64,000 nucleotides of DNA from Raillietiella orientalis (Eukaryota): NCBI GenBank assembly GCA_036172245.1, contig JAYWIR010000022.1, positions 434,001-498,000 on the forward strand, read 5' to 3'. The notes below the pieces were generated by a model. The model did not search any database. It had not been told where the DNA came from and saw nothing but the letters and a program-made list of their open reading frames with translations. Position numbers and translations under genes: made by a program. Shown piece after piece: positions 24,999-64,000 of the stretch (the first letter of the stretch is position 1; each line of letters opens with the position of its first letter).

Positions 24999-26121
<1,123 letters not shown>

Positions 26122-26143: not shown

Positions 26144-28069
26144 TTATATTTGGCTGTCTTCAACTTGCCCTGTCACTGGATAGTATACTTTAAAGGAGCC
26201 ACAGTTTTTTGCAAAGGAACCCTGTAATTTGATGAACATTTGATAGCAGATGGCAATGCTCTTACAGGATTGACAATGGTGCATCCTGCCTGAGTAACAG
26301 TAAAGCTTTCAAAACGATCTGCACAAATCAACAAATCTGGTAATGGATATAGACGTAGTGCAGCATCAAATGGCCAGTAGATAGGGCACAGAGCCAAAGG
26401 CAGTGGACACAGATGACATTGAGATGTTATTGTCTTTGCAAACTGGTCTGAAGGGTAAATTATGCGAATGGTTATAGGAAGAAACTCACATGACTGGGAA
26501 TGTCTCCAGTGGCAGGAAAATAAATGCAATTCCGGCACATCTTAGTGACCATGTCCTCCCTAAATATTACAATCTCTTTGGTACAGTACTGTAAATGACA
26601 TGGATTGCTGGTTACCACTACTGAGGGCACCAAGGACACTAATTCCTTGGTTAAACATTTTGGCAATGCAGGATGTGGAAGGACACTAGCAACTCCAGGA
26701 TCATTAGGACCAGGAACAAGGACAAATTTGGTTGAACTCAACAAAGATGGAAAAGTGACTATCAACTGTCCAAGAGAAATCAAGTGATTGCGCAGCATTT
26801 TGTTGTACTCTGTGTTGTAAGGCTGAGACAAGAAACTGCCACAAAGCACAAAACATTGTGGAGGGCACTGGCTGAATCCTGCAAAAAGGGTCTGCAAATT
26901 ATGCATGACTTCTGGTTGGTCTAACCAAACATCTGAAAGGAATACTAGCATGGCATCAGGCTTAGCAGCTTCTTTAGCTTGCAGCTTAGTATTGGACTTG
27001 ACAGCCATACTGTGTGGTCCACCAAAAAAATTAAGATTTCCAAAATATGCTCTAAGAACCAGATGGAGACAACTTTCTTCCGATCTTGTACTACCTAGTA
27101 CATTCAGCAGTCTCAACTGGAGGAAATCCCATGGCTCTGACAGAAAACATTTCATCTTCATAGGTTCCTTCACACAGAACAAAGCAATTCTCGAGAAATA
27201 GTCCTGTGTGAAACTTGTAAAATAATGCTAAGGAAATGCTGCATGCTCCATAGCAGGAAAGGATATTGTTTCACTGAGATCCAGTTGCACAAACCCTGTA
27301 GGATCTTCCAAGAAGTACTTCCCCTCCTTCAACTGAGTAATCATCCCTAGTACAACAAGATCACCTAGTTTTGCAGTGCTTCCCATTAGATATTCCACAG
27401 GTTTTAATTCATATTTTTTTCCTATGTCTTGTGTACCTAAATTATTAGCTATTGAAGAGAAAACTTCATGTCGAAGAATTCGCTGATGTATTAAAGTATA
27501 CCTAACAAAAATTGAAAAATTATTTTGAAAATTTCACACATGATTACCTTTCTTCAAAAATTTTTATCTTATCTGATGGATTTCCAAATAAACTAGGCAG
27601 TTTTGACGTTATCGTAAGTTTCTTTCTTTGTGAATTATATTCTGCATGTGGAATAGAAAAGGCATCAGTCACACTAAAAATCGGATCTCCCCCACCAGCC
27701 TTGTCCTCTACACAGGTCTGAATAACATCAAGTACATTTATTTGAGTAATTGCAGTGACACTAATGTATGAATGCATGAATTACATGCAGTTACTGCATC
27801 TATATAATGAAAAAGGGTAATACCGTTATTATTGTCTCAAGTGTATTTTTCTCGATAAGAGATGAGCAGGCCTGCTTCTGTACGGAGTCGATAAACGTTT
27901 CCAACCACTTTATCCTTTCACCTTTATCGAAAGGAGAAAGCAGCTGGCAAAGATAGTTGCTTGCTTCACTACAGAAAAATAAATGAAGCTGCCGATAAAA
28001 TACTCACTTTTTCAATTTGAATCCATATAAGTCAAAAAATTTCTTTATCTCCGGTTTTATGCTTGCCAT
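26144..28069 (-). CDS. POLE2: DNA polymerase epsilon subunit 2 (multi-exon)
   Basis: Begins [19 protein letters not shown]; contains [70 protein letters not shown] and [11 protein letters not shown]; ends [16 protein letters not shown]. Confidence 0.97.
27217..27266 (-). other. U12-type AT-AC intron (50 nt) in POLE2
   Basis: Minus strand reads ATATCCTTT...TTTCCTTAGC.ATTATTTTAC. Removing it joins [18 protein letters not shown] in frame. Confidence 0.92.
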
Positions 28070-50903: not shown

Positions 50904-51475
50904 TTATACAAACTGGGTAGCTATGGCAAGAATTTTGGTAAATGATCCTGTCTTGCATCTTAATATAGCTGGAATTGGCAGTAAGATTCTGGTGCCTAAT
51001 GGATTACCATTATCATCTAGGAGAACAATGTTGTTGGTATCAAATCTTGGCACCAGAGGGGCTTGCTTCTGCTTAACCCCAACAACATAGGCTTTTTTCA
51101 TATGGCCTTTTATGGCAACCAGAACCATATCTCCTAAGGATAACTTAATTGGAAGTATCATTGATTAATTTTTACCTAATCCTGCTTTGGGATGTCTACC
51201 CCACTTATAAACATATATACACTTTGGTGGTTTGCCCTCCACCATTGCTTGTTTTCCTAAAGCACTATTGTCAATAACACGGAGACGTGTCAATTTTTGG
51301 ATCTCCTTCTGTACTATGTTCGTATGAAACATTTTCGCAGGCAGTAAAAAGGATAAAATCCCATAAGTTGTTTTATTTAACATCTCAAAATGCACTCCGG
51401 GCTGAAGAAAAAAATGGGGGAAAGAAGCAGGTCCACAGTTAATAAAATATGAGGTTAGGAATTGTATCTTACCAT
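50904..51475 (-). CDS. MRPL14: Mitochondrial ribosomal protein L14. Exons 51473-51475 (ATG only; alternative start at 51383), 51176-51401, 50904-51133
   Basis: Translation includes IQKLTRLRVIDNSALG, PPKCIYVY, GDMVLVAIKG, PRFDTNNIVLLDDNGNPLGTRI and KILAIATQFV*. Confidence 0.95.
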
Positions 51476-59539: not shown

Positions 59540-60023
59540 ATGGGGCACCAGAATATTTGGTATTCACATCCTCGAAAATATGGCCAAGGATCTCGACGAT
59601 GGTAGTATATTATCAGACAATTTATTTGAATGGAATTCCTTTACGATGGGGTGTTTTTGTGTTGGGTGTTTAAGGTTCTCACTTTGGTGCAATTTCCACA
59701 CAGTAATGAAAATTTTAACAGAACATTGTTTTAAATTCTTGAACCGTACTTACGCGTCTTATTATCATTTTGGCAAATTGCTTTTTAGTAATTACTAAAA
59801 TGTGTATAAGTGCATGTTGCAGTATTTGAAAAGTCGTTCATTTTAGTCGCACATGTTCCAATCGTCATGGATTAATCAGGAAATACGCTATTAACATATG
59901 CAGGCAATGCTTCAGGGAACAAGCTAATGAGATTGGATTTAAGAAGGTAGACATCTAAACTACTTTGAAAATTCTGTTTATATATATATATATATATTTT
60001 TTTTTGTTTTACAGATGGATTAA
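59540..60023 (+). CDS. RPS29: 40S ribosomal protein S29. Exons 59540-59601, 59847-59946, 60015-60023
   Basis: Translates to [56 protein letters not shown], with AATAAA at 60029-60034. Confidence 0.98.
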
Positions 60024-60035
60024 AGATCAATAAAG

Positions 60036-63000
60036 TTAATAGCTTCTTCCAAATAATGTGTAGAAATGGGGTGTGTTGAGACATTCGTGGTGAATACATT
60101 TAGTGGTTGATAAATCAGGCTGTTCAAATGGTATACATAAAGCTTTGGCCCCCATGGATGCTAGTCCTGGATCCGTGGTGATTTCTTCCCTTTGTGAACT
60201 CTTAAAGACTGTTACTAATGTTCAATTACTTACTTAGCGCTGTCTTTTCGAATTTTTTCTTCACATTTGCTTTCACCACAAAAAGGTGCCAACAAAAGGT
60301 GTTTGTTATCGAGTTCAATACAGAAGTTTTGCCATTCATGACACAAGATTATATTAGTGTCCATATTCTCCTTGGCTCTAAAAAATAAGAATTACACAAG
60401 AACTCGGTTAAAACCTTGTTACCTTTTGTAAAGACTGGTTTGTATATCTGTTAACAGTTTCTGTACTGCACTAACAACATCAGGATACTTGAAAAGCTGT
60501 TTCTCTCCAGTATCTCTACGGATAGCAACACACTGATGCAAACCAAGATCTTTTGGTCCTACTTCTAGACGTATCGGAACTCCCTGTGTATAGATTCTTA
60601 TAAGTTTATCCGAATTCTTTAAATTTACCTTTAATTCCCAGTGGTTGAATTTCCATCCTGGACTATAATTTTCTCGGTAATCACCAAAAGTGCGGATACC
60701 TGCATCCTTCAGTTCTTTTTCAAGCTTTTGGCAGGTTTCATCTAGGGAGTCACGTAACTTGGGTTCCAAGCTACTGGTCAAACCACATGGGACAATTACG
60801 AGTTGGTATTTGGCAATTTTTGGTGGAAGTACCAAGCCTTTATCATCACCATGTACCATAATCATGACACCAATTGTACGTGTTGTGATCCCCCAAGAAT
60901 TCTGGTAGACAAATTCCTTCTTCCTTGTTTCAGGGTGCTCATAGACAATCTCAAACATGCGAGAGAAATTCTGCCCAAGGAAGTGTGATGTGGCTCCCTA
61001 ATTAGTCAGTCAGTTAAGTTTGAACAGAGGCAAAGAACTTACTTGGATTCCTCTCCCAGTAGCTGATATAAATGCTTCCACAGTAGTTGTATAATCACCA
61101 CCTGCAAACTTTTCATTTTCTGTTTTTCGCCCTTGAATAACTGGTACTGCCAACAAATCCTCATAAATCTGACGGTATAATTCTATATGTAAGAATATAC
61201 TTAGTTGACTGGTAACTTATTTCATGCTTATGCTCTTCATTAAATGTGATAATACAACTAGATTTCTTGTTAACAATGCTTGCAACTTACAATTACTAGC
61301 AGTGCTTTTATTTCTAAACCAAATAAGTGCTATACAATGTTACTTGATGGAAATGTTTCAAATTAAAAAAAAAAACGAAAGCACGAACTTTTCTGTCTTT
61401 TTGCATAGGAACAATAAAACCACTACTCTTGTCAAAACTGATAGGCAAAATTCCATGTTTGCAGCATAGCTGAAGCTTGAAACATTTTTAAATGGCATTC
61501 AACAGAAGAGTTTGTGCTGGACATTAAGATGATGGAACAAGATTAAAAGCATAATGAAAATTGATTTGCAGTTCTTTCAAGTGAAACCATGAACCATGAA
61601 ACTTTTTTAGATTCAAAAGAAAAGTCATTTGTAATCATTAGAATACTCAAAAGAAAATAATTGAATTGAACAATTGAGAAACAATAAAAATTTAATCTGA
61701 GTAACTCCTGCATTTACTCTCCAGATGCTTACCCAATATCTCCAAAACTTCTGCTTCTGCTTCTTTCTTATTAGCAAATGCTGTGTGACCTTCCTGCCAT
61801 AAGAATTCTCGTGTTCTTAAAAATGGCTGTGGATGTTTGAATTCCCAGCGCACTACATTGCACCACTGATTCAGACGTAATGGGAGATCTCTGTATGACT
61901 GTATCCATTTGGCATAATAAGGGTACATAACAGTTTCACTTGTAGGGCGAATAGCCACAGGCTCTATCAAATCTGAATGTCCTGATTTTGTTACCCATGC
62001 CACTTCTGGAGCAAAATCACTTATGTGCTGTTTTTCTTTTTCAAGTGCTGCATTGGAAACAAACATGGGAAAATAACAGTTCTGAACCTCCATAAGGTTA
62101 AGTTTTGCATCAAAGAAGTTCTTAATAACATCCCAAATTGCATATGCCCAAGGCCTTAGGATGTAGCAGCCACTCACATCATAATATTCAATCATTTCAC
62201 CTTTGGTTATCACTTGTGAATACCATTCTGCAAAGTTACTATGCTTTGCTGCTTCTAGTCCCAGACGTGTCTGCTTTTTGGTTAGTGAGGTTGCATTTGA
62301 CTTGCTGTTCTTTGATAATGGAGACTTAGCATTATCAACTTGTTTGTCTGATACAGATTCAGTACTTTTACAATGAGTTGTCTTGCTTTTTGGTGATCTG
62401 GAAACCTGCTCTGTTTGCTTCTGTTTGCCTCCCTTTTTTAAAGTCTCTTCTTTTTTGATTTCCAGCTTTTTCTCTTTTGAAATCTCTTCTTTTTTGATTT
62501 CCACTTTTTTCTCTTTTAAAATCTCTTCTTTTTTGATTTCCACCTTTTTCTCTTTTAAAGTCTCTTCTTTTTTGATTTCCACCTAACAAAAAAAGTATTC
62601 ATTTATGAATGAATCTATGTCAAACTTAATCATCATAATATAATGAAAACAAAGATTTTTATCCAATTTCTTTTGCTGATACGATGTGTTGATGGGAAAT
62701 ATGTTAAGACAGAGAAGTAATAGAAATACAATCTGGAAACAATACATAAATGATGTGATGAGAACCAGAATGTGTCAAGATTTTTCACATAAAATATGAT
62801 CACAGAATAGAATTTGTGTAAGAAAAAGGAAATGCTTTGAAACTAAGCATCCAAAAGCACACACAAACAATTGAAAAATAGATCACTTTACTGAGAACAA
62901 TTGCAACAAAATATGGAAACTTTGCATATGTGACAGAATCAAAATGCTGATTAACTGACACAATGGCAACAATTTGTGGGCAGCATGGTATGTCAAGATC

Positions 63001-64000
63001 CATTTTGTTAGATGATTATGAAAACAACATGAATCTGAACAAAATCATAAACAAGGTGAACACACACACTTTGTGTTATTTGGTGAATACAGAGTAAATA
63101 AATGAAGAATTATACGATACAAAATAAGCATTTATGAAGAACTTGTATAAGGCTATACATTTGTTGACCTTATCAAATTGAATCACAAAGAATCCTACAT
63201 ATATTGTGAAAGGTTTTTTGGGAAAATTCAACATATAATGCTTACCAATAAATCAGTTCTTTCACACCTTACTCTACTTCTGCATATAACAATTCTAGTA
63301 GGCACAATATTTTCACTGATACATCCATTCCACAATTTATTTCATGCATCAAAAACACATGCAGTAGAATGCACAGCAAGACAAAATGCATACTGTACTC
63401 ACATCCTTAAAATTTTGCCCCAGCATAATTTTCTCAATAACCAATAAGGTGGATTTGGTGCCATCGGGAATTGCAATCAATTGTAAAGGATCTTCGAGCC
63501 ACGTATATTTGCTGCAAGTACACAAATTGTTTGACTTAAAACTAATGTTAGATAAGTAAGAAATCTTTTAAAATTACTACGTGAATATCGGAAGGGCACT
63601 CTAACCTTGTCTGAGAAACTACTATAACATAGTGTAAACTAATATTTTGCAAGAAACTATTCAAAACAATTATAATATTTACATGACCACTAATCTTATT
63701 ATTAAAGATACCTGGGTTGCTTGTAAGGTGATTCACAGATAAAATAACCACGCCGTTGCAGTTGAATAATGTCACCTTTGCATAATGTAGTCATTGCTGA
63801 CTCCACTAAAACAGGCAGCTCAAAATGTGACTGATGGTCAACAAATTGCTTAAAATCTTCATCCTTGGCCAATACTGCTTTGCTAATGATAGCTGTATAA
63901 TAATGTAAGGTGCAAGGAATGGGACAAACTCTTGATCCAATAGGTAACCATGTAAGCTTCAGAGTTTTTTTATAATTCTTGTCATCAAGATTTGCTTGCA
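60036..64000 (-). CDS. EPRS: Bifunctional glutamyl-prolyl-tRNA synthetase, 5'-partial (continues beyond the window)
   Basis: The GluRS C-terminal part ([32 protein letters not shown]; exons 63712-64000 and 63403-63511) splices in phase to ProRS ([74 protein letters not shown]). Confidence 0.96.
62436..62582 (-). repeat. Coding 39-bp tandem repeat, about 3.8 copies of VEIKKEE(T/I)(L/S)KEKK, in the EPRS linker
   Basis: The unit gtggaaatcaaaaaagaagagactttaaaagagaaaaag is repeated with few substitutions. Confidence 0.93.

Follow-up and report, generated by a model that had tools for sequence, protein, structure and literature searches.

A predicted fused glutamyl-prolyl-tRNA synthetase with a tandem Lys/Glu repeat and no detectable WHEP domain in its linker

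In glutamyl-prolyl-tRNA synthetase (EPRS), non-canonical binding of RNA and proteins is the task of the WHEP domains, which have also served as a phylogenetic marker; the human protein, EPRS1, has three of them. Here we describe an EPRS gene on the minus strand at the end of a 64,000-nucleotide (nt) stretch of contig JAYWIR010000022.1 (positions 434,001 to 498,000), referred to below as the window, within which all coordinates are given. The linker between its GluRS and ProRS parts carries no detectable WHEP domain and contains a tandem Lys/Glu repeat. Probably, the gene encodes a fused EPRS whose linker of 123 amino acids (aa) is made up of a charged helix and a basic arm, with no WHEP.

Linked EPRS proteins without WHEP have been described before. 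The excerpted sections of Ray & Fox 2014 (PMC4072531) report them, with no WHEP at all, from Schistosoma mansoni, Pediculus humanus corporis, as well as Acyrthosiphon pisum (pea aphid), in which a second EPRS variant carries six WHEP domains. In the same sections, the authors tied WHEP loss to parasitism, the WHEP-less species being parasites; they also described the WHEP domains of Trichinella as degenerate and assigned a single WHEP to sponges, placozoans, and cnidarians, with the exception of Nematostella, which has splice variants with one and two. Among the papers listed by full-text literature searches, no other dealt with WHEP-less EPRS. An earlier note on this DNA, made by a reader who saw only the sequence, had treated a WHEP-less linked EPRS as an unheard-of state, a view that gives way to the precedent in that paper, as far as its excerpted text goes. 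Among 230 EPRS-like proteins that we fetched, three full-length EPRS (P0039, from Polypedilum vanderplanki according to its source, P0176, and P0188) likewise had no WHEP by either Pfam or our own hidden Markov model (HMM), and their linkers of 40, 103, and 81 aa, respectively, were rich in K, S, P, and A and non-repetitive. Because of these proteins and the report of Ray & Fox, we regard WHEP-less EPRS as a known state. None of the three comes from a species named in the excerpted text of that report; exon skipping in an isoform, or an error in the gene model, may account for them.

Compared with the WHEP-less EPRS of Ray & Fox, as far as the excerpts describe them, the present gene is alike in its GluRS-ProRS fusion and in a linker without recognizable WHEP; it differs in its tandem Lys/Glu repeat predicted as a helix, of which those sections make no mention. 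On the structural model presented below, the tandem Lys/Glu helix appears to be a new form of this known state. Canonical metazoan EPRS differ in their linkers, which measure 265-326 aa with three WHEP domains and at least 472 aa with six or seven, whereas the linker here measures 123 aa and has no PF00458 match. What the gene has in common with the EPRS of the brachiopod Lingula anatina (P0014, three WHEP) is the GluRS end IPDG, the KK.TRLGLEA entry, a basic pre-ProRS spacer, and the ProRS domains.

Sequence, open frames, and homology to Lingula EPRS place the locus in the last 4 kilobases (kb) of the window. Eight exons lie in the window, and when spliced they give 740 codons with a single stop, which is terminal; the seven introns all have GT-AG borders and measure, in order, 200, 820, 550, 45, 45, 45, and 35 nt. 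The repeat, the spacer that follows it, and the start of the ProRS core are all contained in the 850 nt of exon 3 (62582-61733). The ProRS part is complete and of the eukaryote type, with a class II core, an anticodon-binding domain, and ProRS-C_1 (PF00587, PF03129, and PF09180), and from TRLGL to the C-terminus (about 504-520 aa) it shares 66-67% of its residues with the EPRS of insects and Lingula. On this gene model, what lies in the window appears to be an animal EPRS gene that is intact, represented by its 3' two-thirds.

The absence of WHEP was tested with two profiles. PF00458 matched none of the 43 six-frame stop-to-stop open reading frames of at least 20 aa between 62150 and 63760 (both strands, E ≤ 10). 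For our own WHEP HMM we used 617 different segments taken from the 230 fetched proteins; searched with every filter disabled against the whole window, cut into 3469 six-frame pieces of at least 8 aa, it reached an E value of 0.78 at best, at 37.6 kb. Between 61000 and 64000 it did no better than E = 2.8, on the wrong strand; on the minus strand of the intron at 62583-63402, in which the longest open frame is 71 aa, the best piece had an E value of 55; and for the spliced model of 462 aa nothing was reported even at E ≤ 1000. As positive controls, the same HMM detected WHEP in 222 of the 230 fetched proteins (the other eight were plant ProRS in three cases, ProRS-only proteins in two, and full-length EPRS in three), and Pfam recognized WHEP in three stretches of Lingula EPRS and in a single one of P0058. 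Alignment by tblastn tells the same story: residues 707-925 of Lingula EPRS had no match in the gene, and with composition correction the ProRS match did not start before residue 1002, where the KK.TRLGLEA anchor lies. Uncorrected, it reached back into Lingula WHEP 3 with 21 identities in 92 columns, mostly K/E, an extension that is compositional. The linker carries no detectable WHEP domain. The earlier note had found no WHEP-like exon in the intron at 62583-63402 and had proposed a profile search of six-frame translations of the region; neither profile finds such an exon there, and the search over 62150-63760 gave no match.

That WHEP was lost, as opposed to never having been present, is what we infer; the earlier note, whose observation is confirmed and whose interpretation is supported in part, had proposed a loss specific to this lineage, which may be the case. 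Two circumstances would nevertheless leave WHEP domains in this organism. The locus may be one of two EPRS copies, with WHEP kept in a second copy elsewhere, as in Acyrthosiphon pisum, for which the excerpted text of Ray & Fox 2014 (PMC4072531) gives a WHEP-less EPRS together with a six-WHEP variant. We hold this to be unlikely: neither a WHEP nor a second copy was found by our HMM in the six frames of the 64-kb window, and the EPRS here appears fully functional, with its 740 aa free of internal stops and its identity to insect and Lingula EPRS. It would in any case be compatible with the reading of this gene as a WHEP-less fusion. Very unlikely is a loss confined to the assembly, in which the stretch from 63403 to 62582 was misassembled or suffered a deletion that removed WHEP exons of the living genome. 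An assembler can indeed collapse WHEP repeats that are lineage-specific and nearly identical, but one WHEP copy or more should survive a collapse, and there is none. An assembly gap, which the earlier note had named as a circumstance that could overturn the absence, does not appear either, as the window contains no N. The intron is also ordinary in composition, with a G+C content (GC) of 0.30 against 0.27 and 0.30 in the two other long introns (exons, 0.37-0.38), and its strong splice sites are intact.

The case for one fused product rests on the junction between exons 2 and 3. The two exons share a strand, are separated by 820 nt, and are phase-compatible (phase 0). The donor of exon 2, GTGAGT, is strong, the acceptor of exon 3 is preceded by a T-rich, pyrimidine-rich tract, and exon 3 begins at 62582 straight after an in-frame TAG, the AG of which is the acceptor. 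No Met occurs in it until residue 130, by which point the conserved ProRS core is already 25 residues long; because no in-frame Met lies ahead of it, exon 3 needs an upstream exon. Matching phases, strong splice sites, and the lack of a start in exon 3 argue that GluRS and ProRS are fused on one predicted transcript. This bears out the proposal that the GluRS end (IPDG...NFKD, with a phase-0 donor after 63403) can join the phase-0 exon at 62582, since coordinates, phases, and GT-AG sites all match.

The same features make it very improbable that GluRS and ProRS are separate products, with GluRS ending by intronic read-through or polyadenylation and ProRS starting from its own first exon or from an AUG-supplying trans-spliced leader joined at the acceptor at 62583. 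Some flatworm spliced leaders do end in AUG. If the donor were read through, a stop would follow after only 17 further codons, and the intron has an AATAAA 61 nt from its start (63342 region, minus strand); moreover, the excerpted sections of Ray & Fox 2014 (PMC4072531) treat the WHEP domains of Caenorhabditis elegans ERS and PRS as those of separate proteins. One AATAAA in 820 AT-rich bases is, however, about the chance expectation, and separate products would have to accommodate both an exon 3 without an early Met and two coding parts that stand close together on one strand, in matching phase, between a strong donor and a pyrimidine-rich acceptor. Taken as an observation in its own right, the AATAAA makes a GluRS-only product by intronic polyadenylation possible, and chance in AT-rich DNA fits it equally well.

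The predicted fusion gives a linker of 123 aa from IPDG to TRLGL, in keeping with the roughly 120 aa proposed for it; Lys makes up 27% of it, Glu 15%, and Ser 11%, and its net charge is +13. It is composed of a 19-aa tail after IPDG, a 52-aa Lys/Glu block, and a 52-aa Ser/Lys-rich basic spacer. Inspection by eye had suggested that this tail might be the remnant of a first WHEP helix, an idea that neither profile supports. Tandem Repeats Finder (TRF) reported the repeat at 62436-62584 with a period of 39, 3.8 copies, 93% matches, and a score of 263. Neighbors among units 1-3 differ at 2 of 39 bases, and unit 4 departs after base 30. Within the window the 39-nt unit is confined to the array, with three matches at no more than three mismatches against none expected from 100 shuffles. 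At the DNA level, then, the Lys/Glu block is a 39-nt tandem repeat that was amplified or homogenized recently. In these respects the earlier note was right, both in describing four near-identical 13-aa KE repeats followed by a Ser/Lys-rich stretch before KQTRLGL, on which TRF and the sequence agree, and in calling the block a recently amplified charged spacer. The 52 residues of the block include 19 K and 15 E, with hydrophobic V, I, and L in each unit, and K+E peaks at 70% over 40 aa; the maximum among the 230 fetched EPRS-like proteins was 60%.

Whether this block has replaced WHEP, as had also been claimed, is best answered in two parts. By position the claim holds, in that the 52-aa repeat sits at the site of a single WHEP of about 50 aa. 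It does not extend to the Ser/Lys-rich stretch. In 165 WHEP-bearing EPRS, 33-61 aa (median, 58) separate TRLG from the final WHEP domain, and the pre-ProRS spacer was the most K/E-rich part of the fetched EPRS; because its place and length fit these proteins, we take the 52-aa Ser/Lys stretch to be the ordinary pre-ProRS spacer. Searches with the linker returned no close relative. When the 100-aa linker was compared by HMMER with all of 1.84 billion representative proteins, no homologue was found, its one hit (P0351, E = 9e-05) being an unrelated charged-repeat protein of E, K, R, and Q that we rejected. A word-based protein search with residues 40-135 of exon 3 gave at best 83 bits among 949 hits at E ≤ 10, with no close relative, and the same search with the whole exon gave, in the best 120 of 7396 hits, only distant EPRS with at most 82% identity in the ProRS core.

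AlphaFold2 predicted the Lys/Glu block as one helix of 49 residues (residues 2-50 of exon 3; 62433-62579), with block means of the predicted local distance difference test (pLDDT) of 91, 97, 97, 94, and 84 over residues 1-50. Residues 51-113 had no secondary structure, with pLDDT values of 51-66, and were followed by the first ProRS helix. Most likely, the block forms one stiff, charged alpha-helix of the ER/K single-helix type, and the Ser/Lys-rich spacer is predicted to be disordered. It is barely credible that the block is a degenerate WHEP, or part of one, that was internally duplicated, since its position at a single-WHEP site, its similar length (52 versus about 50 aa), the Lys/Glu-rich and helical nature that WHEP shares, and the uncorrected tblastn extension from ProRS back into Lingula WHEP 3 are set against the loss of that extension under composition correction, a spliced model that falls beyond the E ≤ 1000 reporting limit of the WHEP profile, and a predicted single continuous helix with no helix-turn-helix.

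Two other systems offer points of comparison for the block so predicted. ER/K single alpha-helix (SAH) spacers occur in myosins and other proteins, and the likeness lies in a long Glu/Lys-rich run with a predicted, uninterrupted 49-residue helix; here, however, V, I, and L occur in each unit, there is no sequence homology, and the helix is a prediction. Eukaryotic LysRS and AspRS bear polybasic tRNA-binding extensions, which resemble this linker as lysine-rich peptides appended beside a class II synthetase core. Those extensions are N-terminal, whereas the net-positive linker here is internal and its tRNA binding would be an inferred property.

In the reading that we favor, that of a fused EPRS with a charged helix and a basic arm in place of WHEP, a 39-nt unit starting at the first base of the exon would have been tandemly duplicated recently to give the repeat. 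The helix may hold the two catalytic bodies apart yet tethered, and the linker, with its charge of +13, would probably add unspecific tRNA affinity. WHEP-dependent specific RNA and protein binding would be absent. A further-reaching version, that this is the sole EPRS of the organism and the new Lys/Glu helix a de novo stand-in for WHEP, acting as a rigid spacer together with an unspecific tRNA-binding arm, seems doubtful to us.

Besides the second copy considered above, several points weigh against the favored reading. The junction 63403>62582 is a prediction from the gene model, and the GluRS catalytic part lies outside the window; it and the N-terminal GST-like domain would be placed beyond base 64000. 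Since our WHEP HMM was seeded with the canonical motif, a very degenerate WHEP of the Trichinella kind could escape both profiles. The input to AlphaFold2 was a single sequence, the first 126 residues of exon 3, and charged low-complexity repeats are frequently rendered as helices by prediction. Finally, 3 of the 5 base differences among the units alter a residue and therefore give no sign of constraint on the repeat, though the numbers are tiny.

Each independent WHEP-less EPRS tests whether the fusion needs WHEP or merely some spacer, and each also probes the published idea of loss with parasitism. Should this gene be the sole EPRS, the EPRS fusion could persist without WHEP; should its host be free-living as well, WHEP loss would not be bound to parasitism as Ray & Fox proposed. 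The locus adds a distinct solution, a recent tandem Lys/Glu repeat with a predicted stiff helix; with the phenomenon already described and the gene structure a predicted one, we see in it a useful data point and no surprise. The coordinates of its parts and of the neighboring features are collected in Table 1.

Table 1. Parts of the EPRS gene and other features assigned in the window
Feature	Coordinates	Strand	Evidence and remarks
GluRS anticodon-binding domain exon, 5' part beyond window end	63712..63998	-	PF20974, E 2.3e-09 (63705-63998); tblastn to Lingula EPRS residues 594-688; phase 2 end, donor GTATCT
Last GluRS exon	63403..63511	-	...IPDG + 19 aa ...NFKD, phase 0; donor GTGAGT 63402-63397; tblastn to Lingula residues 689-706
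Intron, 820 nt, GC 0.30, without WHEP-like coding piece	62583..63402	-	Pfam, own WHEP HMM, composition
Four 13-aa Lys/Glu units (39-nt tandem repeat), start of exon 3	62427..62582	-	TRF, unit alignment, AlphaFold2
52-aa basic Ser/Lys/Thr-rich spacer; final KKQ adjoins TRLGLEA	62271..62426	-	K 11, S 11 of 52; AlphaFold2
ProRS catalytic core start, same exon as linker	61733..62270	-	PF00587, E 5.5e-10; 78.7% identity to Lingula EPRS residues 1002-1189
ProRS exon 4	61043..61182	-	Stop-free in spliced model
ProRS exon 5, end of core plus first half of anticodon-binding domain	60629..60997	-	PF03129 profile positions 1-51
ProRS exon 6, second half of anticodon-binding domain	60423..60583	-	PF03129 positions 52-93, continuous with exon 5 over 45-nt intron
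ProRS exon 7, first half of C-terminal domain	60234..60377	-	PF09180 profile positions 1-32
Final ProRS exon, ...FGRSY then stop TAA	60036..60198	-	PF09180 positions 32-71
2OG-Fe(II) oxygenase	25882-26118	+	Pfam
DNA polymerase epsilon subunit 2 (POLE2)	26176-27227	-	Pfam; named by protein matches
WD40 gene	33.1-37.3 kb	-	Pfam
TMEM63/OSCA-type channel	46.7-48.2 kb	+	Pfam
ABC1/ADCK kinase	49.7-50.4 kb	+	Pfam
Ribosomal L14 family	50907-51164	-	Pfam
TPR protein	55.1-56.6 kb	-	Pfam
Ribosomal protein S29-like short open frame, just downstream of EPRS stop, opposite strand	59830-59958	+	By eye only

The 3' half of ProRS is interrupted by short GT-AG introns at 60199-60233, 60378-60422, 60584-60628, and 60998-61042 (35, 45, 45, and 45 nt), the upstream introns measuring 200-820 nt. 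Pfam profile positions run gapless over two of these four. As the intron at 60584-60628 is in frame and stop-free, its alternative reading is a 15-aa insertion.

Elsewhere, the window shows a sharp break in composition between positions 1-21600, with a GC of 0.57-0.65, and the gene-dense part at 22200-64000, with a GC of 0.31-0.47. Long open frames run through the GC-rich block in each of the six frames; there was no Pfam match in its seven longest open frames, no Rfam match, and no strong tandem repeat in it, and its dispersed or inverted repeats amount to four short pairs. The block may stem from a chimeric join. Rfam gave no match over the whole window. From 25.9 to 57 kb, Pfam searches of open frames outline a compact neighborhood of housekeeping genes. 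In a quick tree of POLE2 (37 rows, the 36 named ones chosen from 120 listed, with a query that included some intron-derived residues), the window sequence sat on a long branch inside no starred clade; the most we conclude is that the DNA comes from an animal with no close relative among the library proteins. Protein matches to the POLE2 exon at 26475-27227, with identities of 50-57%, came from gastropods, a nemertean, and amphioxus, among others.

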